The notes beneath the pieces are model-generated. The model searched no databases, had not been told where the DNA came from, and saw nothing but the letters and a program-made list of their open reading frames with translations. Made by a program: the position numbers and the translations under genes. A stretch of DNA of 64,000 nucleotides from a bacterium (GTDB taxonomy: Bacteria; Electryoneota; RPQS01): positions 13,174-77,173 of the forward strand of contig JAHJDG010000101.1 in NCBI GenBank assembly GCA_018812265.1. The letters run 5' to 3'. This document shows positions 3,621-38,097 of the stretch, one piece after another. How positions within the stretch are numbered: the first letter of the stretch is position 1; the number at the start of each line of letters is the position of its first letter.

Positions 3621-5207
3621 ATGCCCACTTCTGAAACTCAAGTAGCCTCGGTTAAGATCGATAGGCTTGTTGGCAGAATCAAAGATGGAGACATAAAGAT
3701 TCCGGCCTTTCAGAGAGGCTTTGTTTGGGATCAGGAACAGATTATCGCGCTTCTCGATAGCATCTATAACAACTATCCAGTCGGTTCATTGCTATTGTGG
3801 AGATCAAGTGAGCGTCTGAAGTCAACCAGAAATGTAGCTGGACTCAAGCTGCCTGATCGCGAACCAGAGTATCCAGTGAACTATGTATTAGACGGACAAC
3901 AGCGTCTTTCCTCCATCTATGGTGTATTTAGTACGGACCGCGAGTTTGCCGAATATCTTGGCGCGTACGCTGTAGATGCAAGGGTATTTGACATCGGCTT
4001 TGATCTTGTCAATCTTGAGTTTCTACCACTGTCCAATGCTGCCGATCCACAAAGAATGATTCCACTGAAGAGTCTTTTCAATCCGTCCGAGTTTCTGGTC
4101 ATTCTCGGCAGGCTAAGTCTAGAAGAACAGAAGCTTGCAACTGAACTACACACACATTTCAACAACTACGAGTTTCCAACAGTTACGGTAACGCATCGCG
4201 ATAAACGAGAGGTTGGCACTATCTTCGAGAGAATAAATTCAACCGGTACGAAACTAACCACCCTCGATCTCATGGTGGCGTGGACATGGAGCGAGGATTT
4301 TCATCTACAGGAACAGATAAATCAGCTTCTAGATACTCTGGATGAAAAACGATTTGGAGACTTGCCCGAAAAGACGCTGCTTCAGTCACTGAGTGGAATG
4401 ATTGTCAAATCCACTAAGACGAGATCAATCCTCGGATTGTCGCCAGATGATGTGAGGGGGACTTTTGAATCGATGACGGATGCAATGGAGCGGACAATTG
4501 ATTTCTTGGGGACGGAGTTTTCCGTCGCGTCTAGAGAACTACTGCCGTTTCCACAGCAGATTGTCGGACTAACATATTTCTTCAGCAAAGTAACAAATCC
4601 TACGGCTTCTCAATTGAAGCTCGTTCGCCAGTGGTTCTGGAAAACGACGTTTTCTTATCGTTACTCCGCTCAAACAGATGAGAAAATGGATGCCGACATA
4701 GAATTCTTTGATGGCATGATTGATGGATCGATTGACATTTCCAGTGACTATAAGTATGATATCGCTTTTTCTGATATCATTTTCACTGGTCTGAGCAAAT
4801 CGAATCCGATAGCCCGGGCATGTCTTCTGCTTATGGCACAAAGACAACCTCGTGATCTAACCAACGGTGCCGCAATAGATGTCGGGCAAGCACTCTCTAG
4901 CTACAATCGCAAGGAGTACCATCATATTTTTCCTAAAGCCTTTCTAAGGAAAAGGGGGATTGCAGCCAGCCGTATTAATTCAATGGCCAATATATGTTTC
5001 TTAGCTTCTTCTTCGAATAAGAAGATATCCAGTAAGCCACCGTCCGATTATATCTCCTCGGTTGTTCCGCAGGATGAAAAGAAGGAGATACTCGAATCCA
5101 ATCTGATGCCACTAAAGAACGAAGTCTATTCCAAGGATGACTATGACCAATTCCTCGAAGAGCGAGCACGAATCATGATCGCATATTTGGACAGTCTTCT
5201 ACTTTAG
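3621..5207 (+). CDS. GmrSD-family type IV (modification-dependent) restriction endonuclease, DUF262 + DUF1524
   Basis: N-terminal DUF262/ParB-like block (FQRGFVWDQEQI...YPVGSLLLW, DGQQR motif). C-terminal DUF1524 His-Me finger motif (EYHHIFPK). Gene and leader are markedly lower in GC than the flanks. Confidence 0.75.
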   Translation: MPTSETQVASVKIDRLVGRIKDGDIKIPAFQRGFVWDQEQIIALLDSIYNNYPVGSLLLWRSSERLKSTRNVAGLKLPDREPEYPVNYVLDGQQRLSSIYGVFSTDREFAEYLGAYAVDARVFDIGFDLVNLEFLPLSNAADPQRMIPLKSLFNPSEFLVILGRLSLEEQKLATELHTHFNNYEFPTVTVTHRDKREVGTIFERINSTGTKLTTLDLMVAWTWSEDFHLQEQINQLLDTLDEKRFGDLPEKTLLQSLSGMIVKSTKTRSILGLSPDDVRGTFESMTDAMERTIDFLGTEFSVASRELLPFPQQIVGLTYFFSKVTNPTASQLKLVRQWFWKTTFSYRYSAQTDEKMDADIEFFDGMIDGSIDISSDYKYDIAFSDIIFTGLSKSNPIARACLLLMAQRQPRDLTNGAAIDVGQALSSYNRKEYHHIFPKAFLRKRGIAASRINSMANICFLASSSNKKISSKPPSDYISSVVPQDEKKEILESNLMPLKNEVYSKDDYDQFLEERARIMIAYLDSLLL

Positions 5208-5307
5208 ACTGAATCACCACAGCCGTAAGGTCGATGGCGCAAGTTCTCCTCGATAAAGTCTGAAAATAGATAGACAACCACGTAGGGTTGTCCCTACAGA
5301 AACTCTG

Positions 5308-8082
5308 ATGAACGAGACGAAACACATTTCCGAAAGAGCGTATCCTCACGCCGAGATCGAGGTCAAGTGGCAGAGGATCTGGGAAGAGCGGGGGACGTAC
5401 AAGTTCCATTGGACACCCCCCCTGACCCACCCGCAAGCGGAGGGGAAGAATAGGCCGAAGTTCTACGTGCTGACCATGTTCAGCTATCCGTCGGGAGACA
5501 AGCTGCACATGGGACACTGGTACTGCTACGCTCCGGCCGACACGTTCGCGCGGTTCAAGCGGATGCAGGGTCACGAGGTGTTCGAGCCGATGGGCTTCGA
5601 CGCGTTCGGTCTGCCCGCCGAAAACTACGCGATCAAGACGGGAATCCACCCGCGCATCTCGACCGAGAAAAACGTCGCATTCATGCGCGAACAACTGAAA
5701 CGCATCGGAGCGATGTACGACTGGGACTACGAAGTTAATACGTCCTCGCCCGAATACTACAAGTGGACGCAGTGGTGGTTCCTGCTGATGTATAAGCGCG
5801 GCCTGGCCTACCGCAAGGAAGCGCTGGTCAACTGGTGCCCGGACTGCCAGACCGTGCTGGCCAACGAGCAGGTCAAGGCCGACAACACCTGCGAACGCTG
5901 CGGAAACGAAGTCGCGCGCAAGTCGCTCCGGCAATGGTTCTTCCGCATCACCGAGTACAGCCAGCGGCTTCTGGACGGCCTCGAGACGATCAACTGGCCG
6001 GAAAAAACCAAGGCCATGCAGCGGTATTGGATCGGGAAGTCGGAGGGGACGGAGATTGAGTTCAAAATCCGAAAATCCGAAAATCCGAAAATCGAAAATG
6101 AAGGAAGACCTAATGATGGGGAGGGGATCAGGGTCTTTACGACGCGGGCGGATACGCTGTTCGGGGTGACGTATGTGGTACTCGCGCCTGAGCATTCGCT
6201 GGTACATGAGGTGACGACGGAGGATCGGAAGGCGGAAGTCGAGGGCTATGTGGCGCGGGCTTTGGCGGTCTCGGACGTCGAGCGGGCGGCGGCGGACCGG
6301 CCTAAGACGGGAGTGTTCACGGGCGGTTATTGTGAGCATCCGCTGACACACGAAAAACTTCCGATTTGGGTGGCCGACTATGTGATCGGAACCTACGGAA
6401 CGGGAGCGGTGATGGCCGTGCCTGCCCACGACGAAAGAGATTTCGATTTTGCGAAGAAGTACGGGCTGGAGATACGGGAAGTGATTCGACCGACCCCCCC
6501 CAGCCCCCCCGCAAGCGGAGGGGGATCGGAAAGGCATACCCCCCCCTATGATGGAAGCGCACTGCCGTGCGGCACTACCCCCGTAAACGGAGGGGAATCG
6601 GAAAGGCATACCACCCCCTATGATGGAAGCGCACTGCCGTGCGGCACTACCCCCGTAAACGGAGGGGAATCGGAAAGACATACCCCCCCCTATGATGGAA
6701 GCGCACTGCCGTGCGGCACTACCCCCGCAAGCGGAGGGGAACTCGAAGAAGCATTTACGGATTATGGGGTGATGGTCGGATCAGAGGAATTCGATGGGCT
6801 GGAGTCAGAGGAAGGGATTCGAAGAGTGGGGGAGAGGCTCGAGCAGCTCGGGCTTGGGAAGCCGACGGTGCAATGGCACCTGCGAGATTGGACGGTATCG
6901 CGGCAGAGATACTGGGGTGCACCGATTCCGGTGATCCACTGCCCGAAGTGCGGGATCGTGCCGGTTCGCAAGGAAGAGCTGCCGGTGCTGCTGCCGGATG
7001 ACATTGAAGAGTTCAGGCCCAAGGGGAAAGCTCCCCTCGAAGCGGCCGAATCGTTCGTGAACGCGAAGTGTCCGAAGTGCGGCGGGGCCGGCAAGCGGGA
7101 TACGGATACGCTGGACACATTTGTTTGTTCCTCATGGTATTTCATGCGATATCCCGACGCACGGCTGGATAGCGCACCGTTCGACACCCAACACTTGAAC
7201 TTCATGTTGCCGATTGAGCAGTACGTCGGCGGCAGCGAACACGCGATGGGACACTTGCTGTACGCGAGGTTCTTTGCCAAAGTCGCCCACGATGCGGGAT
7301 ACCTCAAGTGCGAAGAGCCATTCACGAGGCTGGTTCATCAGGGGATGATCCTCAACCACGGCGAACGCATGTCCAAGTCCAAGGGCAACGTCGTCGCGCC
7401 CGAGCCGATCATCGAGGAATACGGCAGCGACGTGCTGCGCTGCTTCCTGATGTTCATGGGGGATTATCAGCAAGGCGGCGAATGGAGCGACAAGGGGATT
7501 GCCGGTGTGGAACGCTTTGTGGCGCGGGTTTGGAGACTCGTGTCGGCCATTGGTAATGGACATCCCGCGAGTGTGACCGAGCTTCCGATTGAACTCGACC
7601 GGAAGCTGCATCAGACCATTCTTGCGGTCGGCAACAGCTTGGAGAATTTCGATTTCCACGGCGGGTTGGCGCGGCTGATGGAGCTCACGAATCAGATATA
7701 TGCGTGGGTTGGCTCAGAACTTAAAGATGTCAAGAGAAGCCCGGCCGCAATCTTGGTGGCAGAGACGCTTCTTCGGCTGTTAGCACCGTTTGCACCGCAT
7801 ATTTCAGAAGAGTTGTGGCAATCTCTGGGGCATACGACAACAATCTTCGACGCTCCGTGGCCGGTTCATGATGAGGAGAAGGCACGTGAAGATCGAGTGA
7901 CGATTGCCGTTCAGATCAACGGGAAGCTGCGGGGGACGGTGGAGGTGGATATGGACGCGGAGGAGTCGGCCGTTCTCGAGGTTGTGTTTGGGCTTGATCG
8001 CTTGAAGCCTTACCTTGATGGCAAGATGGTGGTCAAGCGGATCGTGGTGCCGAACAAGATCGTGAATCTGGTGGTGAAGTAG
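5308..8082 (+). CDS. leuS: leucyl-tRNA synthetase (924 aa, with in-frame low-complexity insertions)
   Basis: HMGH and KMSKS motifs (HMGHWYCY, KMSKSKGN) and class I LeuS architecture. About 80 aa longer than typical because of repeats. Confidence 0.95.
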   Translation: MNETKHISERAYPHAEIEVKWQRIWEERGTYKFHWTPPLTHPQAEGKNRPKFYVLTMFSYPSGDKLHMGHWYCYAPADTFARFKRMQGHEVFEPMGFDAFGLPAENYAIKTGIHPRISTEKNVAFMREQLKRIGAMYDWDYEVNTSSPEYYKWTQWWFLLMYKRGLAYRKEALVNWCPDCQTVLANEQVKADNTCERCGNEVARKSLRQWFFRITEYSQRLLDGLETINWPEKTKAMQRYWIGKSEGTEIEFKIRKSENPKIENEGRPNDGEGIRVFTTRADTLFGVTYVVLAPEHSLVHEVTTEDRKAEVEGYVARALAVSDVERAAADRPKTGVFTGGYCEHPLTHEKLPIWVADYVIGTYGTGAVMAVPAHDERDFDFAKKYGLEIREVIRPTPPSPPASGGGSERHTPPYDGSALPCGTTPVNGGESERHTTPYDGSALPCGTTPVNGGESERHTPPYDGSALPCGTTPASGGELEEAFTDYGVMVGSEEFDGLESEEGIRRVGERLEQLGLGKPTVQWHLRDWTVSRQRYWGAPIPVIHCPKCGIVPVRKEELPVLLPDDIEEFRPKGKAPLEAAESFVNAKCPKCGGAGKRDTDTLDTFVCSSWYFMRYPDARLDSAPFDTQHLNFMLPIEQYVGGSEHAMGHLLYARFFAKVAHDAGYLKCEEPFTRLVHQGMILNHGERMSKSKGNVVAPEPIIEEYGSDVLRCFLMFMGDYQQGGEWSDKGIAGVERFVARVWRLVSAIGNGHPASVTELPIELDRKLHQTILAVGNSLENFDFHGGLARLMELTNQIYAWVGSELKDVKRSPAAILVAETLLRLLAPFAPHISEELWQSLGHTTTIFDAPWPVHDEEKAREDRVTIAVQINGKLRGTVEVDMDAEESAVLEVVFGLDRLKPYLDGKMVVKRIVVPNKIVNLVVK
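6064..6100 (+). repeat. octanucleotide microsatellite (AAAATCCG)x3 plus degenerate copies inside leuS
   Basis: Direct reading. Translated in-frame as KIRKSENPKIENE. Confidence 0.8.
6505..6741 (+). repeat. 72-bp tandem repeat, ~3.3 copies, in-frame inside leuS (24-aa unit GGESERHTPPYDGSALPCGTTPVN)
   Basis: Units at 6517-6588, 6589-6660 and 6661-6732, nearly identical, each flanked by CCCCGCAAGCGGAGGGGA. The same 17-nt motif also occurs at 5428-5446 within leuS. Confidence 0.85.
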
Positions 8083-8085
8083 AGG

Positions 8086-8113
8086 ACCCTGCGAGTAGAA
8101 TCGCAGGGTTTTC
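8086..8113 (+). terminator. rho-independent terminator after leuS
   Basis: Stem ACCCTGCGA / TCGCAGGGT with 6-nt loop, followed by TTTT. Confidence 0.6.
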
Positions 8114-8223
8114 ACCCTTCACGCAAAGTCACATAAGGGATATTATGTTGAGTAGTTGCATGGCCATTCCTTTGTTTTTATTCAATCCCCCATTCCCCCA
8201 TTAGCCTCGAGCCCTTTCGAGGC

Positions 8224-9090
8224 CTATCGGGGCATTTGCTCAACGGGGATCATGTGGACCTGCAGGCGATAGGCTTTTCCGGGGACCAGGCTGACCACGT
8301 CTGTATATGGTAGATAGCCGCGCTGGCTGATGCGAAGATTCACTCCCCCGCCGGGTAGGAGCGCATATTGGCAGGATTGGGACTTTTGTTGTTCGGCGGG
8401 GATGTCCATACGATCTATCCGTTCGCAGCGGAGGAATTCGACCGGCGGATCGGCGGTGATTTCGGGCGCGGGCGTGTCCACCCAGACTACCAGACGGGCT
8501 ACATTGGGCGGCGTGTCCCCGGCCGGATCGTAGGCCGCGACATCGCCCTCCGGGAACAGCACGCCTTTCGAGGTGGGCCGAAGCTTTCCGGCGGCCGTGA
8601 GGATGGCAACAAGCTGATCGGAAATCTGCATGGCGGCTGAGGGAAGGTCGTTCCAGAGACTGACGGTTGCGGTGGCTGTGTAGCCGGGCGGGACCTCGGC
8701 GGAAGCGGCCACGACGACCCGGGCATCCACCCGGATTTCCCGGGTGAATTCTCCGTAAGTACCTATTACGGCATAATCTGCGTTGAGTTTGGTGGCGATT
8801 TCGGCGGCCAGTTTGAGATCATTCCAGCGGGCGGGCGGAACCTCTCGCAATTTCATGTATTGATCGAGGTCGGACAGTTCAACCACCCGCAATTCGGGCC
8901 TTTTCCCAAGCTCAGATAACAGAATCTGTTGCAGAGCCGGTTGATAGTCGAGGACCGATTCCTTGCCGTAGTAGGCATACAAGGAGTCCACGATAGGATC
9001 GAAGGGCAAGACGACTACAGTCGGCTCGCAGACGGCGGTCGTGGCCGCAGCCAAAAGCCATATCAGGGCAGTGACAAGACGGCGTTTCAT
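8224..9090 (-). CDS. secreted hypothetical protein with C-terminal PEGA-like domain
   Basis: N-terminal signal peptide (LIWLLAAATTAVC). C-terminal segment resembles the PEGA fold. No catalytic motif recognised. Confidence 0.5.
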   Translation of the reverse strand: MKRRLVTALIWLLAAATTAVCEPTVVVLPFDPIVDSLYAYYGKESVLDYQPALQQILLSELGKRPELRVVELSDLDQYMKLREVPPARWNDLKLAAEIATKLNADYAVIGTYGEFTREIRVDARVVVAASAEVPPGYTATATVSLWNDLPSAAMQISDQLVAILTAAGKLRPTSKGVLFPEGDVAAYDPAGDTPPNVARLVVWVDTPAPEITADPPVEFLRCERIDRMDIPAEQQKSQSCQYALLPGGGVNLRISQRGYLPYTDVVSLVPGKAYRLQVHMIPVEQMPR

Positions 9091-12026: not shown

Positions 12027-13051
12027 TCGAATCCAATCTCCTGTGGTCGGCGGTCTTTGCGGTCGGAATTATCGGGTTTGTCTCGGTTTTCGCTCTGATT
12101 GCAATTTGGCTGGAACGGAAGGTCTCGGCGCACATGCAGGATCGTCTCGGGCCGATGGAAACCGGGGGCTGGCACGGCTGGGCTCAGACGATCGCGGACA
12201 CGGTCAAATTGCTCCTGAAAGAGGACATCATTCCCACGGCAGCCGACAAGTTTTTGTTCAAGCTGGCTCCGTACGTGGTGTTCACGGGTTCGTTCGCGAC
12301 GCTGGCGGTAATTCCGTTTGCCCATAATCTGATCGGCACGGACATTAACATCGGCGTGTTTTATCTGGTGGCGGTGTCGTCGCTGGTGGTGATCGGAATT
12401 CTGATGGCCGGGTGGGCATCCAACAACAAGTGGGCGCTCTATGGAGCGCTACGTTCGGCGGCGCAGATGGTGAGCTACGAGGTTCCGATTGCGCTTTCGC
12501 TGTTGGTGCCGATCATGCTGGTGGGGAGCCTTTCGATGGGCGAGCTGGTGCGAGCGCAGGAGGGCGGGCTTTTCCATTGGACGGTGTTCAGCCATTTGCC
12601 GTTTGCCCTGATAGCTTTCGTCATTTATTTCTGGGCGAGCCTGGCCGAGGTCAACCGGACTCCGTTCGATATTCCCGAAGCCGAGTCGGAACTGGTTTCG
12701 GGATACCACGTCGAGTACTCGGGGATGCGGTTTGCGATGTTTTTCCTCGCCGAATACGCCAACATGTTCATCGTGTCGGCGGTGGTGGCGGCGGTGTTTT
12801 TGGGAGGATGGTACGCGCCGATTCCGGCTCTGGACGTGCCGGTCGAGGTCAGTCCGCTGTGGCACGCGGCGATCGGCGCCTTCTGGTTCGTGGCGAAGGC
12901 AATGGCGCTGGTGCTGGTTCAGATGTGGATGCGCTGGACGCTGCCGCGGCTGCGCGTGGATCAGCTGATGCATATTTGTTGGAAGGTTTTTCTTCCGTTC
13001 TCGTTTGCGAACGTACTGGCGGTGTCGCTGTGGGTCGCGATCGGCAAGTGA
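12023..13051 (+). CDS. nuoH: NADH-quinone oxidoreductase subunit H
   Basis: ATG overlaps the nuoD stop (ATGA). Polytopic. Follows nuoD directly, with no nuoEFG between. Confidence 0.9.
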   Translation: MIESNLLWSAVFAVGIIGFVSVFALIAIWLERKVSAHMQDRLGPMETGGWHGWAQTIADTVKLLLKEDIIPTAADKFLFKLAPYVVFTGSFATLAVIPFAHNLIGTDINIGVFYLVAVSSLVVIGILMAGWASNNKWALYGALRSAAQMVSYEVPIALSLLVPIMLVGSLSMGELVRAQEGGLFHWTVFSHLPFALIAFVIYFWASLAEVNRTPFDIPEAESELVSGYHVEYSGMRFAMFFLAEYANMFIVSAVVAAVFLGGWYAPIPALDVPVEVSPLWHAAIGAFWFVAKAMALVLVQMWMRWTLPRLRVDQLMHICWKVFLPFSFANVLAVSLWVAIGK

Positions 13052-13070
13052 GCGGATATTGAGTTAAGGT

Positions 13071-13625
13071 ATGGCAGGATATTTTCGCGATCTCTGGATA
13101 GGCGTTGTCACGGTACTCAAGGGACTGTGGGTCACGTTCGCGCACCTTTTTCAGCGGCGGGTGACGGTGCAGTATCCTCGCGAGACCGTGCCGATGTTTC
13201 CGCGCACACGCGTCACGCTGGTGAACCACGCGGAGGAGTGCGGATTCTGCCTTTCCTGCAAGCGCGTTTGTCCGGTCAATATCTTCACGATTGTGGGAGC
13301 CCGGGCGGACAAGGACGAGGATTTGGGCATTCTTCCGGACGGGAAACCGAAGAAGATGCATATCCTCGAATTCAAGATTGACCTGTCCAAGTGCGTATAC
13401 TGCGGGCTGTGCGTGGACGCCTGTGATACGAAGTCGCTACGCTGGGAACTTCCGCAGGAGCCGTCGGTGTTCCGTCGGCAGGAACTGCACAAGGATTTTT
13501 CCGACATGACGGAAGAGGAAAAGGCGCGCGTTCGGACGCGCGAAGAGCAGCGCAAGAAGGAGAAGGCGGCCCAAGCCGCCGCGGCGAAGACGAAAAGTAC
13601 ACCGGACGAGCCGCAAAGCGACTAA
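13071..13625 (+). CDS. nuoI: NADH-quinone oxidoreductase subunit I (2x[4Fe-4S]) with inserted loop and Lys/Ala-rich C-terminal tail
   Basis: Two CxxCxxCxxxC(P) motifs (CGFCLSCKRVCP and CVYCGLCVDAC) separated by an unusually long ~45 aa spacer. Charged ~50 aa C-terminal tail. Confidence 0.85.
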   Translation: MAGYFRDLWIGVVTVLKGLWVTFAHLFQRRVTVQYPRETVPMFPRTRVTLVNHAEECGFCLSCKRVCPVNIFTIVGARADKDEDLGILPDGKPKKMHILEFKIDLSKCVYCGLCVDACDTKSLRWELPQEPSVFRRQELHKDFSDMTEEEKARVRTREEQRKKEKAAQAAAAKTKSTPDEPQSD

Positions 13626-28745: not shown

Positions 28746-30635
28746 TCAGACATCTCGCGCCGTACGGCCCGCCACGCGAACGTTGCCAACCCGCTGGGTA
28801 ATACCTATACCATCCAAGTGCTCGAGAAACGGAACGACAAACTTGCGTGATGATCCAAGCAGTCGGGCCGCCTCCGAAACCGTGAGGTGAACTCCCTGCA
28901 GAATCGTTTTACGAATCTGCGCAATGGCGTCGTCGAATTGTTCCGTCGTAAAGAAGAGATCGTTACCGAGTCGCCGACATTTTCCCATTCGGTCGAGCAG
29001 CACGAGCGCTTTCTCAATCTGCTCGCGCGGTTTTTTCAGCGTCTCGGCGATGGCCAGCGCCGAAGGCGGCGCGAAGGCTCCTTGCCGGAGCAAATCCAGA
29101 ACATCTTCGCTCAACTCTTGCTGGTCGGGACGCAACGTCATACCGCGGTCGGTCGCTCGGTAGAGGGCCGACTCCTGTACCAATTTGCCATCCCTGACAA
29201 GTTCCGTCAAGAGGAAATCACGTATTGTGTCGGGAAGGCGTGCGAGTTCCATCTGAAAGAGATCACTTCGCGAGAAGCCGGGACTGTCGGGCCGATGGTC
29301 ATGGAGCGTGTTCACTCGGTTCACGACATTCAAGCGCAATTCGGCCACACGGGATCGGAGCAGCAGGTACTCGCCGACCTCAACCGGCCGATCGGGTTGG
29401 GGAAGCTCGGTAAGTATCTCATTCAGCTCGGATCGGGATATCGCGAAAATCTTTGTTGCAACACGGTGTTCCAGACCGTACAGTCCGCGTCCTTTTAGCA
29501 GCGAACCGATGGCATCGGCGAGGGATTCCGTGTGCAAACTCCGGGCGAGGGCCGCCTCGCTCTCGCGAGTGCGTGCTCGAAACGGCGGCGGCGTCGGTTC
29601 CAGAACCGTGCCACCTCCCAACGTCTCAAGGGGCGAGTATCTCCTTAAAACAAAACGATCTCCCCAAGCGGTCACGATTTCCGATTCGAGGAGCACATTG
29701 GCATAATAACGTCGTTTGTCCATTCGCTCGATGAGCTGAAGACGACCAATCGCTTCGTGCGTACCGATCAGGAAACGGATGCGCTGACGATCTTTCAGAG
29801 TATCCGCTTTGGGCAGCAAGTCAATAGCCACTCTCACACAACTCGTCTCGAGCAGGGCATCCGGGATCGTCAGCATCCCGCCCCGCGCAAGGTGCTCGGT
29901 CTGACCGATCAGATTGAGGGCGGCACGTTGTCCGGCCCGCAGAAGGTCGGCTTCTCCGCCCTGCGTTTCGAGACGCTTGACACGAATATCAAACCCGCCG
30001 GGCATCACCGCGAGGCGGGCATCTTTGTGGACTTCACCGGAAATGATTGTGCCGGTCACGACAGTTCCGCGTCCCCGGATGGTGAAAACCCGATCCATCG
30101 GGAGACGAAAAACGCCACGCTCGGGCCGCGCCGGCAACGAGCGGAGCGTGGTCATCAAGCGCTCGCGAAATTCGGGCACACCACGGCCCGACAAGGAATC
30201 TACTCGATAGAGCGGCGCCGACTCCAGAAACGTTCCGCGGACCGTGTCATAAATCTGCTCTTCCACAAGCTCAATCCAGTCGTCAGCGACACCATCCACC
30301 TTCGTGACCGTAATCGCACCGTAACGCACACCGAGCAAAGCGAGAATCGAGAGGTGTTCACGGGTTTGCGGCATGACCCCGTCATCGGCCGCCACCACGA
30401 GCAGAGCAAAATCCACCGTAGCCGCGCCCGCCACCATATTGCGGATGAGTCGCTCGTGCCCAGGCACATCAATGATGGCCGCCACATCGTCGAGGAAGGC
30501 ATAGCCCAGATCCAAGGTGATTCCACGACGCTTCTCTTCCGGCAGCCGGTCAGGATCGGTTCCGGTGAGGGCCCGAACGAGCGCGGATTTGCCATGGTCA
30601 ATGTGACCGGCCGTACCGACAATCACTCGAGCCAT
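28746..30635 (-). CDS. selB: selenocysteine-specific elongation factor
   Basis: N-terminus [21 protein letters not shown]...[18 protein letters not shown]...DVPGHERL matches SelB block by block. 629 aa with C-terminal winged-helix region. Confidence 0.9.
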
Positions 30636-35159: not shown

Positions 35160-36589
35160 TATTCTTTCGCGCTCCTAAGAGACTCCGTCACGGTTCGGAG
35201 AAAGTCCTTCTCATCGGGGTCCACCATTGTCCGCACATCAAACCAGACAACATCCTGGCGGACGGTTCCGATCACGGGTATTTCTGCGAGACGCAGCTTG
35301 GCCACCCAAGCGCCGGCGGTGATTCCGGCCGGCAGTGCGCAGATGGCTCGACTGGGAAGGCTCACGGCGGGAAGAGTTCCCGAACCGGCTTCGGATTCAC
35401 AGGGACGGATTTCGAGAATCTGCCACTCACCCAGTTCTTTCAGGCGCTGCAGAAGTCGCCCTGCGCGAGTTTCAAGAACTTCAATGGGCGTCGTGAGCAT
35501 GTTCCAGACGGGAACGGTTTCCGCGACCCGACGACGGTCGAGAAAGGCGCGCAACGTGGCGGCCATCGCGGCCAGACACAATTTGTCCACTCGCAGAACG
35601 CGCGCCAGCGGACTCCGCCGCAGCTGCTTCACAAGATCTTTCCGGCCCACTATAATGCCTGCCTGCGGACCGCCCAGAACCTTGTCACCGGAAACAAGGA
35701 CCAGATCAACTCCCGCGTCCAAGCTGGCACGCACGTTCTCTTCGGCAGGCAAGCCCCACTCCGTCCAATCGAAGAGTAATCCGTTGCCGAGATCCTCGAC
35801 GACCGTCAGATTACGCTCCCGTCCCAATGCGACCAAGTCCGCCACCGAGACCGACTCCGTAAAGCCGACAATGCGGTAGTTGGACGGGTGTGCGCGCAGG
35901 AGCAGCGCGGTTTTCGTGGTGATCGCTTCGCGGTAATCCGAGATTCGCGTCCGATTGGTGGTTCCCACCTCGACCAGGCGAACGCCGGATCGCTGCATGA
36001 TGTCGGGCAGCCGAAAACTTCCGCCGATCTCGATCAGTTGCCCGCGGGACGCAATGACTTCGCGGCGATGAGCGAGTGCGTTGAGTGTGAGGTAGAGCGC
36101 AGCGGCGTTGTTGTTCACCACCAAGGCCGCTTCCGCTCCCGTCAGCAGACGGAGGAGATCCTCGACGTGTTCCTGTCGCTCGCCGCGTTCGCCGCTTCGC
36201 AGATTGATTTCGAGATCGCAGTAGCCAATGGCCTCACGCAGCGCATTCGCTGCATCGGCGGAGAGCGGCGCGCGGCCTAAGCCGGTGTGAAGAATCACGC
36301 CGGTGGCGTTGATGCATCGTCGCGGGCCGGTATGGCGGATTTGTTCCAGCCGTTCGATGACCGATCGCGCCAGCCGATCCGCAGAGGGAGCGCTCTTCGC
36401 GGATGAGACTTTGGTGCGCGCTGCCGCGATAGCTTCCCGAATGAGAACCGTCAGAATGGCGGGCGAGACGTTCGCCGCAGCGTCGCGCAGCAAGGGATGT
36501 GCGAGCAGCGTATCCACGGCCGGCAAAGTCCGGCGAGGGTCGTCGTTTGCTCCCACCGCTACAGCGTCGTCTCCAAGCTGAGCCGCCAT
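35159..36589 (-). CDS. selA: L-seryl-tRNA(Sec) selenium transferase (selenocysteine synthase)
   Basis: CINATGVILHTGLGRAPL, VVNNNAAALYL, EIGGSFRLPDIMQRSG, SGDKVLGGPQAGIIVG blocks align with SelA. ORF track start is 36631; internal Met 36589 avoids overlapping the upstream gene. Confidence 0.9.
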   Translation of the reverse strand: MAAQLGDDAVAVGANDDPRRTLPAVDTLLAHPLLRDAAANVSPAILTVLIREAIAAARTKVSSAKSAPSADRLARSVIERLEQIRHTGPRRCINATGVILHTGLGRAPLSADAANALREAIGYCDLEINLRSGERGERQEHVEDLLRLLTGAEAALVVNNNAAALYLTLNALAHRREVIASRGQLIEIGGSFRLPDIMQRSGVRLVEVGTTNRTRISDYREAITTKTALLLRAHPSNYRIVGFTESVSVADLVALGRERNLTVVEDLGNGLLFDWTEWGLPAEENVRASLDAGVDLVLVSGDKVLGGPQAGIIVGRKDLVKQLRRSPLARVLRVDKLCLAAMAATLRAFLDRRRVAETVPVWNMLTTPIEVLETRAGRLLQRLKELGEWQILEIRPCESEAGSGTLPAVSLPSRAICALPAGITAGAWVAKLRLAEIPVIGTVRQDVVWFDVRTMVDPDEKDFLRTVTESLRSAKE

Positions 36590-38097
36590 CCGGTGAACGG
36601 TTGTACCTGACGGCAGACACCATTCGAGCATTTGAGTCCTCCCCGCTCGCGGCCATAGAAAAGACCAATGCGATGTTTGCCACGCCCCAGAGTGGTGGCG
36701 ATCTCCGCGGACGGCCAGCCATCCCCTTCGCGCTCTTTCAATTCCTTGTCGTTCGACATCTCATATTGGAGCGACACCGACAAGGAGCGTCCGTCGAACC
36801 AACCGAGGCCGATCAGTTGATCCGTGAATTCTTCGTCGGCGCGTCTGGGATGCGTGATAAGGAGTGTTTCGCTATGAATCTCCAACTCCTGTGATCCTCT
36901 CAGTGGAGTCGTGAATTTCAGCCAGCCCCACTTCCGCTTCCGCCAGACTCCAAACGCGTCTTCGTTGGCTCCCAGTTCGACAAAGAGACTCCTTGCGCCC
37001 GGTAGAGATTGCTCTGCATTCACGAAGAACTCCCAGAACGGATCATCCGCTTCCTGCAACGTCGGACGGGGAATCCCGCCTTGATGCTTGGCATGGCTGC
37101 TGGAAAGGTTGTAGTGCAGAGTCGTGAAGGTCGTGGACGTTGCTTGTCCGGAAAGTTCGACTTGATATCCAACTTCATCGGCCGGTCGCAGAACGTGCGG
37201 TTCACGGGTTTGAAGAAGCCGCGGCCCAAGTTCCCGATAGACCGTAGGCGGACTTTGAAAGGGAGTCAGGATCACATAGTGATAGTCTTTGTACTCGGCG
37301 AGCAGCGACCAACCGCATTTGCTGACCACGCCCCCGAGGTAGGTTGCATGTCCTTCAGATGATTTCGGTGACAGCACACTCTCACTCCAAGCGCGTTCCC
37401 CATAGAACGTGAAGGCCCCCCGTGACAGTCGCCAGTCGAAACCTGAGATATGGGTCTCCCGGTAGGCTCCGCTGTCCACGAAAAGATAGTTGAAACCCAG
37501 CGCCTGCCCTCCAAAGCGGAGATTCACGCGGCTTCCCGAAACGTCCGCTTCCTCGACGTAGATGCCTTTTTGCGACGATCCGTGCAGCAGGGTTATGAAC
37601 AGCGGTTCGCTCTTCAGTGCGACATGCACTCCATCCAACTCGGTATCGAAATACAGGTCGCGATTTTCATAGGAACTGAAAGCGAGGCCGTGTGCCCAGA
37701 TATCGCTGAAATCACCCCCCCGGATCGTGAAGGGCCAGAGAGTGGCCTCGATGTATCGTTTATCAATTGTGCTCACGTCTGCGAGGCCGTCACGATAAAT
37801 ATCTTCGTCGGAGGGACGGAAATGCAGGAAACGGCCGCCGACCCGCAGGTTGCCATAATATACATCGAGTCGAAGGCGGTTTTCCACAAAACGACGCGCG
37901 ATGGTGTTATCGGGATATTCACTTTCCGGGAGACGCGAGTCCACCTCATCTCCTTCATCCCATCGCAGATAATTGGAGCCCTCCACCGTCGCTTCGGTTT
38001 CGGAATCTTGTGCACCGGATGGGACTGCCCAGACCAGCAGCAGAACCAGCAGAAGCGTGAGCCGTTTATTCACCGTCCGCTCCCAGGAGTATGTCAA
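36559..38097 (-). CDS. predicted outer-membrane beta-barrel protein (hypothetical)
   Basis: Signal peptide, alternating amphipathic beta strands, C-terminal aromatic residue pattern. No named family recognised. Confidence 0.45.
   Translation of the reverse strand: MTYSWERTVNKRLTLLLVLLLVWAVPSGAQDSETEATVEGSNYLRWDEGDEVDSRLPESEYPDNTIARRFVENRLRLDVYYGNLRVGGRFLHFRPSDEDIYRDGLADVSTIDKRYIEATLWPFTIRGGDFSDIWAHGLAFSSYENRDLYFDTELDGVHVALKSEPLFITLLHGSSQKGIYVEEADVSGSRVNLRFGGQALGFNYLFVDSGAYRETHISGFDWRLSRGAFTFYGERAWSESVLSPKSSEGHATYLGGVVSKCGWSLLAEYKDYHYVILTPFQSPPTVYRELGPRLLQTREPHVLRPADEVGYQVELSGQATSTTFTTLHYNLSSSHAKHQGGIPRPTLQEADDPFWEFFVNAEQSLPGARSLFVELGANEDAFGVWRKRKWGWLKFTTPLRGSQELEIHSETLLITHPRRADEEFTDQLIGLGWFDGRSLSVSLQYEMSNDKELKEREGDGWPSAEIATTLGRGKHRIGLFYGRERGGLKCSNGVCRQVQPFTGWRLSLETTL

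Follow-up and report, generated by a model that had tools for sequence, protein, structure and literature searches.

Rickettsia palindromic elements (RPEs; Ogata et al. 2000) are described, in the passages devoted to them in two reports, as palindromic repeats that lie in frame in functional genes, housekeeping genes included, and are translated as extra surface segments; the same passages regard them as selfish DNA (PMC3184786, PMC3733652). The account in PMC3733652 confines them to Rickettsia and gives them a CGTC tag at one end. Repetitive extragenic palindromic sequences (REPs) and REPINs, which are accompanied by REP-associated tyrosine transposases (RAYTs), are imperfect palindromes of 20-40 bp tagged with GTAG or CGTC (PMC3733652, PMC3116915); some REPs are intragenic, and clusters encoding 43-82 aa have been reported (PMC3733652). 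Here, we describe repeats in leuS, the gene for leucyl-tRNA synthetase (LeuRS), of a bacterium of the Electryoneota (assembly GCA_018812265.1, contig JAHJDG010000101.1). The whole stretch of 64,000 nt that was analysed, positions 13,174 to 77,173 of this contig, is referred to as the window. The repeats are copies of a 33-nt hairpin element and, at one site, a tandem array with a period of 72 bp, and we consider it likely that tiny GC-rich hairpin repeats, acting as non-autonomous selfish DNA, have colonised leuS at positions encoding three surface loops.

RPEs are roughly 100-150 bp long. The leuS element resembles them in being inserted in frame into a functional gene at tolerated positions, but it has 33 nt (72 nt in the composite unit of the array), contains C7 and G7 runs, lacks a terminal CGTC and occurs in hosts other than Rickettsia, i.e., in cyanobacteria, Planctomycetota, Chloroflexales, Calditrichota-like metagenome-assembled genomes (MAGs) and viral contigs. 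A GTAG tag with a hairpin, as in REPs, is found in the nested core of each 72-bp unit, whereas the C-run element itself is untagged, lacking GTAG as well as CGTC; moreover, REPs are mainly extragenic and the C-run family is mainly intragenic. Judged by its sequence, the element behaves as RPEs and intragenic REPs do, yet belongs to neither family, since size, terminal tag and host range differ. Thus, of the resemblance to RPEs proposed in the original prediction, the in-frame behaviour stands, but the element is not an RPE. Miniature inverted-repeat transposable elements were rejected as well, as these are far longer and no consistent target duplication is visible.

The small dispersed repeats (SDRs) of Nostoc, reportedly described by Elhai et al. 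in 2008, are said to be 21-27 nt long, to have a conserved hairpin, to lie often in tandem heptamer repeats and to form nested insertions; they have reportedly been proposed as the smallest mobile elements and are said to be confined to a cyanobacterial subgroup. As in this description, the leuS copies are flanked by 7-8-nt tandem repeats and one hairpin is nested in another, but in-frame residence in coding sequence and a C7-YAR-C7-G7 design are not known from SDRs. GC-rich hairpins inserting into coding sequences are also known from fungal mitochondria as mobile GC clusters or double-hairpin elements, and Borg elements contain in-frame, perfect tandem repeats that create disordered protein segments rich in Pro, Ser, Thr and Gly. 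Both differ from the leuS repeats in hosts and sequences, and the perfect Borg arrays come without a dispersed hairpin element. Full-text searches of the literature gave no description of the C7-YAR-C7-G7 motif, with SDR families compared by their general features, and the entire family may well be new to the literature.

Repeats in leuS and their translation products

The element consists of an A, a run of seven or eight C, the trinucleotide YAR, a second run of seven C, a short palindrome of 6-9 nt, a G run and a final A, with a modal length of 33 nt. The canonical copy in the window, A-C8-AG-C7-GCAAGC-GGAGGGGG-A, has exactly this length. The gene and the element-related features at its three insert sites, apart from the array, are as follows.

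5308-8082, plus strand: leuS coding sequence, 924 aa, host gene of all repeats (open reading frame [ORF] list, Pfam, Thermus thermophilus LeuRS 1h3n)
5173-6681, minus strand: antisense ORF of 502 aa from the mechanical ORF listing, overlapping the strongly supported LeuRS frame and not considered a gene
5415-5446, plus strand: site-1 copy of the element, slightly degenerate (ACCCCCCCTGACCCACCCGCAAGCGGAGGGGA), read as PPLTHPQAEG, 87% identical to 6493-6523
6064-6099, plus strand: site-2 tandem repeat, (AAAATCCG)x4.6, 36 nt, in frame, encoding KIRKSENPKIE (Tandem Repeats Finder score 65)
6100-6132, plus strand: site-2 putative decayed element 3' ends, GGAAGACCT and then GGGGAGGGGATCAGG, recognised by their resemblance to the ends of element types B and A
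6493-6525, plus strand: canonical 33-nt element at the left edge of the site-3 array, read as TPPSPPASGGG, an exact match to the anchor ACCCCCCCYARCCCCCCC

The canonical copy folds, at -15.2 kcal/mol when taken as RNA, into a stem of 8 bp between its second C run and its G run, with one bulged A because the G run is broken into GGAGGGGG; this interruption is common to the copies of relatives, and the architecture matches that of 135 copies elsewhere. The 18-nt anchor ACCCCCCCYARCCCCCCC is matched exactly at 6493-6510 and with two mismatches at 5415-5432 (shuffle expectation, 0.05), and the two copies are 87% identical over 31 nt (5415-5445 versus 6493-6523), with the inner sequence GCAAGCGGA in common. 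The 17-nt motif noticed in the original prediction is the 3' half of the element. Its reported N-terminal occurrence is indeed present and adds residues, but the similarity spans 31 nt and not 17. With up to two mismatches allowed, the 17-mer CCCGCAAGCGGAGGGGA has five matches in the window (5430, 6508, 6580, 6652 and 6724), all of them within leuS, where 0.03 would be expected by chance from shuffles.

The copies at 5415 and 6493 are read in different codon phases, and the added peptides therefore differ (PPLTHPQAEG versus TPPSPPASGGG). Inside the inserts, 12/18 Pro codons of leuS are CCC, compared with 9/43 outside. The different frames and the bias toward CCC together indicate that the inserts originated at the level of DNA.

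Pfam assigns to the leuS product a class I catalytic domain (tRNA-synt_1) and domains for editing and anticodon binding, and the top solved relative of the protein is LeuRS 1h3n of T. thermophilus (E = 1.6e-242). The plus frame encodes an intact LeuRS including the HMGH and RMSKS motifs, and no support was found for the minus-strand ORF, which had already been taken for a mirror image of the repeats. The closest orthologs in a collection of 5.8 billion proteins, from MAGs of the Calditrichota/KSB1 type, are 74-84% identical and have about 840 aa, versus 924 aa here. In an alignment of 24 sequences including the LeuRS of the window, the 24-aa repeat encoded by the array was present in 0/23 orthologs, which have short or different segments at the insert positions; the claim of an in-frame insertion is therefore supported.

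Compared with 1h3n, the protein has 9 extra residues behind the first helix (site 1), 13 where the editing domain begins (site 2) and 76 between T. thermophilus residues 370 and 373 (site 3); those of site 1 are also extra relative to the ortholog P0022. The site-3 insert lies within the C-terminal part of the CP1 editing domain and splits the Pfam profile PF13603 at position 144/185, and the array is thus inside this domain and not, as had been proposed, in a linker after it. An AlphaFold2 model of the protein (mean predicted local distance difference test score [pLDDT], 77.7; predicted template modelling score, 0.73) is well folded except for residues 39-44 (site 1), 259-270 (site 2) and 400-476 and the KMSKS loop, where pLDDT is below 50. 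The low-scoring insert segments have no secondary structure, and all three patches are modelled as disordered surface loops, a location that the original prediction had raised as a question. Site 2 (6064-6132) is a third patch that it did not contain; the remnants there are similar to how elements of type B (...GGGAGACCTGA) and type A (...CGGAGGGGGATCAGA) end on the 3' side at the same loop in the related loci L001, L125, L126 and L127.

The array at site 3 has the following parts.

6506-6741, plus strand: 72-bp tandem array, 3.3 copies, coding for a 24-aa repeat (Tandem Repeats Finder score 423)
6557-6578, minus strand: REP-like hairpin in unit 1, GTAG-TGC-CGCAC-GGCA-GTGCG-C, the sole stem kept in the centroid fold of the unit
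6580-6596, plus strand: first inner junction hairpin, CCCGTAAACGGAGGGGA, two mismatches to the 17-mer
6629-6650, minus strand: REP-like hairpin in unit 2, GTAG-TGC-CGCAC-GGCA-GTGCG-C, a repeat of the unit-1 hairpin
6652-6668, plus strand: second inner junction hairpin, CCCGTAAACGGAGGGGA, a match to the 17-mer
6701-6722, minus strand: REP-like hairpin in unit 3, GTAG-TGC-CGCAC-GGCA-GTGCG-C, a repeat of the unit-1 hairpin
6724-6740, plus strand: right-edge hairpin, CCCGCAAGCGGAGGGGA, an exact match to the 17-mer

Three near-identical, in-frame 72-bp units giving a 24-aa repeat had been predicted. Indeed, Tandem Repeats Finder reported a period of 72 bp with 95% matches and 0 indels, and repeat finding in the window gave three 92-nt copies at 72/72-nt spacing with 93-100% identity. 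The array is in frame, and the repeat peptide is GG(G/E)SERHT(P/T)PYDGSALPCGTTP(VN/AS). As in a minisatellite, the units lie head to tail with 95% identity, the period is divisible by three and a hairpin copy bounds each unit; the differences between the units, at five positions, form a consistent pattern. The motif bounds every unit, as had been stated, but its sequence is not uniform: the two outer junctions have GCAAGC and the two inner ones GTAAAC. Both forms are palindromic, and GTAAAC recurs in the viral contig L175 and the metagenome contigs L192 and L196.

Within a unit, ATCGGAAAGGCAT is followed by A-C8, then by TATGATGGAAGCGCACTGCCGTGCGGCACTA and finally by C5-GYAARC-GGAGGGGAA, so that the unit looks like one C-run element with an extra segment of about 28 nt between its two C runs. 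This segment contains what appears to be a REP-like, GTAG-tagged hairpin of the type described in PMC3733652. Near-identical 22-mers (GCGCACNGCYGTGCGGCRCTAC) are present in L127, 62 nt upstream of leuS, and in the viral contigs L175, L185 and L197, far above chance for the 1.6 Mb searched, and all four keep the GTAG and the CGCAC/GTGCG stem of the nested core (GTAGTGCCGCACGGCAGTGCGC, minus strand). In the 64-kb window, no copy of the nested core was found other than those inside leuS.

The element in related leuS genes and in other genomes

The leuS loci of seven relatives were fetched (L001 to L003 and L124 to L127). They have two related element types, intact or decayed, at the same four leuS loops. 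Type A is (GAAAAG)ACCCCCCCTARCCCCCCC, followed by a palindrome and GGAGGGGGATCAGA, and type B is TCAGAAGCCCCCCTTAATCCCCCCATTTCCGCAGACGNAAATGGGGGGAGACCTGAA. Copies of both types are often preceded by 7-8-nt tandem repeats (AAGTCAG, AAATTCC, AAATCCG), and site 2 of the window agrees with this arrangement, an 8-nt repeat being followed there by apparently decayed type B and type A 3' ends. At site 3 of L003 and L126, the copies are decayed and the C runs are interrupted by synonymous changes; L003 has no intact copy, and some relatives lost copies without replacement. Other copies are fresh, as in L001, where two 51-nt copies at a distance of 1.2 kb have 100% identity. The inner sequence tracks the lineage and not the site, ACTGAAG(C/G)A being found in the sister lineages at site 1 of L002 and at site 3 of L003.

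On a neighbour-joining tree, the presence and absence of the element is patchy: P0022, from the sister lineage of the window, retains the ancestral HWDSKRQK at site 1, and P0001, from the next lineage out, has a 33-nt insert there in another phase. Across the orthologs, the DNA motif is conserved but the peptide sequence is not. Taken together, these observations suggest that copies turn over as DNA, by re-insertion or by gene conversion. Nor is the element exclusive to leuS in this group, since a different ORF holds a copy in L118, which shares its assembly with L124, and L192 and L196 have near-identical copies with the clade-specific 3' end GGAGGGGGATCAGAATCGG in non-leuS genes.

The anchor ACCCCCCCYARCCCCCCC was scanned exactly in contigs of one genome per species, with matches at at least 120 loci, and in viral contigs, with matches at 61; 181 loci were fetched, and the family counts rest on the anchor matches listed. 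The motif thus belongs to a repeat family, as the original prediction had proposed, and this family exists well beyond this genome. Among the matches listed, most are from filamentous cyanobacteria (Microcoleus, Tychonema, Planktothrix, Nostoc and Scytonema) and others from Planctomycetota, Chloroflexales, Thiotrichaceae, Poribacteria and Patescibacteria; matches in Streptomyces, an actinomycete MAG and a Streptococcus contig were poly-C runs rather than copies of the element.

A G run of five or more, completing the hairpin, follows 3-16 nt after the anchor in 135/200 copies, although the search had asked for the anchor alone. TTNNNAA and GCNNGC are the usual forms of the inner segment, and the Chloroflexales copies have the inner GCAAGC of the window. 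The two loop-flanking positions are complementary in 103/135 and 96/121 copies (shuffle means, 72 and 60), and in 114/133 an A comes directly behind the G run. A search for a target-site motif found the upstream flanks uninformative, with at most 0.11 bit per position. Alignment of the copies from L004 to L188 also revealed two subfamilies with linked differences, one with C7-TAR that mostly ends in G8 and one with C8-AR that ends in G7 and then A/C.

ORFs of at least 300 aa hold 77/137 copies, in both orientations and all phases (six combinations), and the length of 33 nt is kept in 45/68 coding copies versus 3/18 non-coding ones. Together with the two phases within leuS of the window, these numbers agree with the earlier notion of an element that resides in ORFs and leaves the frame intact. 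By tblastn, two host genes were recognised as encoding a LeuRS, where the same loop of the anticodon domain is hit, and a related synthetase of class I; the peptides flanking other copies contain characteristic motifs that suggest cysteinyl-tRNA synthetase and DNA ligase as further hosts.

Tandem arrays overlap the anchor in 21/181 loci (a few of these are poly-C junk), mostly with periods of 30-60 nt and commonly of 33 nt. Coding arrays have periods of 33, 36, 39, 48, 60, 69 or 72 nt, and the number of units differs between orthologous Microcoleus genes. Such arrays are what the slippage-driven expansion suggested in the original prediction would produce. A non-coding array in L096 (Microcoleus chromosome CP181291.1, minus strand, about 5781-5993) sits amid AAGAAGC heptamer repeats and repeats every 53 nt, a period that is no multiple of three.

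Origin of the inserts and rival explanations

If leuS was colonised by selfish hairpin repeats, the inserts may have arisen as follows. With a unit length that is a multiple of three and most phases free of stops, a copy in a permissive loop would be translated as a disordered, Pro/Gly-rich linker with which the enzyme would still work, so that the insertion would be nearly neutral. Site 1 is the same element in another codon phase, and site 2 would consist of decayed remnants plus an 8-nt microsatellite derived from the flank of the element. At site 3, two neighbouring copies, with the nested GTAG-tagged REP-like hairpin in their spacer, may have acted as direct repeats, and replication slippage or unequal recombination would have multiplied the spacer together with a hairpin until 3.3 units of 72 bp had formed; probably, the array grew by slippage between the flanking element copies. 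Since the gene is essential, only in-frame outcomes would survive, and selection would keep the period divisible by three. The GTAAAC of the inner junctions could stem from hairpin-templated correction or from conversion by another copy, GTAAAC being a common family variant. On this account, the element would be mobile.

Several observations weigh against colonisation by a selfish element. No mobilising enzyme was identified and no new insertion event was observed, and the filled and empty sites come from lineages too diverged for exact ends or target duplications. No element was found outside leuS across the 64-kb window, which random insertion would not obviously predict. Across the eight related genomes, leuS holds about 25 copies in about 21 kb, versus one or two in about 173 kb of flanks. 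Only about 70 gene families are represented in these flanks, and copies that are orthologous do not count as independent events. The fold energies of the unit and the elements were no better than those of composition-matched or dinucleotide shuffles and are not used as evidence here. Within the most frequent length class, pairing is kept in 95.7% of cases but the pairs hardly vary, which makes covariation uninformative; the hairpin is supported by complementarity across subfamilies with different inner sequences and not by formal covariation.

The unit of the array, too, is without counterparts: its 26-nt core had 0 matches in metagenome contigs, and the 24-aa unit had no true relative among 1.84 billion representative proteins. 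A search of the same proteins with the 87-aa insert gave nine matches, of which the six inspected were unrelated low-complexity repeat proteins, and a chimeric element-peptide query gave nothing at E <= 10 in the 5.8-billion-protein set, probably owing to composition filtering. With no relatives of the unit, the history of the array is untraceable, and its copy number is that of the assembly.

The preference for leuS can be read in three ways, as local copying after a founding insertion, as a consequence of unusually permissive LeuRS loops or as a sign of a role in cis. In the last case, the hairpins would be features of leuS DNA or mRNA that are selected for pausing, stability or autoregulation. 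The strong enrichment in leuS would fit such a role, as would the filling of the same four loops throughout a clade in which LeuRS identity is no more than 60-85%, with many C7 runs intact. As RNA, the stems have a stability of -15 to -20 kcal/mol, and the palindrome is kept through the GCAAGC, GTAAAC and GCGCAGCGC variants. However, other phyla and viral contigs have the element as well, in a wide range of unrelated genes and in every phase and either orientation, and the assembly of L124 has a copy outside leuS, in L118. Copies were lost or decayed without replacement in some relatives, up to the lack of any intact copy in L003, an Rfam scan of 5200-8300 matched no family, and the fold z-scores were unremarkable. 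We therefore regard a selected role in cis as improbable, though it is the strongest of the rivals.

Less probable still is that the array, or its copy number, is an artefact of short-read metagenome assembly. With 236 bp of near-identical units, the array has a length that short-read assemblers can collapse or expand, and no second assembly of this species was found for comparison. But the consistent pattern of the five differing positions, the preserved reading frame of an intact essential gene and the equivalent arrays in independent assemblies, including the complete Microcoleus chromosome of L096, all speak for a genuine array.

It is very unlikely that the inserts are functional protein modules, i.e., Pro/Gly-rich linkers or repeats for a new interaction or localisation. 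Aminoacyl-tRNA synthetases are known to gain appended domains, and the inserts are in frame, in surface loops and kept in an essential gene; but one DNA sequence gives unrelated peptides in different frames, the DNA motif and not the peptide is conserved across orthologs, the inserts are predicted to be fully disordered, the 24-aa unit has no relatives and copies decay freely in related genes. Equally hard to believe is a purely local origin in leuS with spread by slippage or gene conversion and convergence of C/G runs elsewhere: the near confinement to leuS in the window and related loci and the low complexity of C and G runs would fit it, but not the conjunction, at more than 180 loci in several phyla, of the anchor with a hairpin, G run and A that were not searched for and a modal length of exactly 33 nt, nor the inner GCAAGC shared even by Chloroflexales copies, nor the near-identical copies ending in GGAGGGGGATCAGAATCGG in non-leuS genes of L192 and L196.

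Colonisation by selfish hairpin repeats thus remains the explanation that we prefer. More tentative, and in our judgement rather doubtful, is the wider claim that the family represents undescribed pan-bacterial, phage-borne, ultra-small mobile DNA of 33 bp, frame-neutral and mainly intragenic, that came repeatedly to the same four leuS loops. Repeated colonisation of the same four loops would point to local or targeted copying and not to random insertion plus selection.

If the family is as widespread as the scans suggest, it would be a common, overlooked source of in-frame insertions in bacterial proteins and of intrinsically disordered Pro/Gly loops, essential enzymes included. The element would be a recurrent cause of odd indels in alignments and phylogenies, and it puts homopolymer runs (C7-8, G5-8), which are expected to be mutation prone, into core genes; variable arrays could act as strain markers. 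If a unit of 33 bp can spread among phyla and phages with no known enzyme, this would also raise the concrete mechanistic question of how small mobile DNA can be, and the concentration of copies makes leuS a defined locus for studying such elements.

Genomic surroundings of leuS

Immediately upstream of leuS, each relative has its own set of defence-type or mobile genes. GmrSD is encoded there in the window (3621-5207) and in L001 (8298-9989), AbiJ/Abi_C in L124 (8266-9990), an EcoRI methylase plus GmrSD_N/HNH in L126 (7544-9999), HEPN/NTase, a Y1_Tnp-like gene and SLFN-AlbA_2 in L127 (5520-9791) and Y1_Tnp in L002 (2933-3421). The region looks like a variable island beside the conserved, essential leuS.

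A RAYT was considered as the mobiliser and, on the evidence at hand, rejected, since the Y1_Tnp genes beside leuS in L002 and L127 are flanked by other repeats and neither a Y1_Tnp homolog nor a RAYT gene was found in the 64-kb window. The RAYT-like Y1 transposase gene of L002 (2900-3520) is flanked by its own hairpins of the GGAACCGCAACCCGGCCGGAA type and that of L127 (6780-7800) by hairpins of the CCCGAGCGGGGCATGTC...GACATGCCGCCGC type, and these genes with their repeats look like REPtron-like units beside leuS. Just downstream of leuS, L001 has about 14 tandem copies of a 16-nt unit, TTGCGGTGCATTCGCC / TTGCCGTGTATTCACC (12959-13185). In the window, TCCCCCAT occurs twice at 8186-8202, about 100 nt past the leuS stop, followed by a GCCTCGA...TCGAGGC hairpin; this is probably the terminator region and not a copy of the element.

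Two tRNA-Pro genes (622-696 and 1538-1614), with the anticodons GGG and CGG and 88% identity over 76 nt, flank a PCMT gene about 4-5 kb upstream of leuS. The tRNA-Pro(GGG) decodes the CCC codons that fill the inserts, which is probably a coincidence. The window also contains selB (28749-30635, minus strand) and selA (35162-36631, minus strand), and the organism therefore probably uses selenocysteine.

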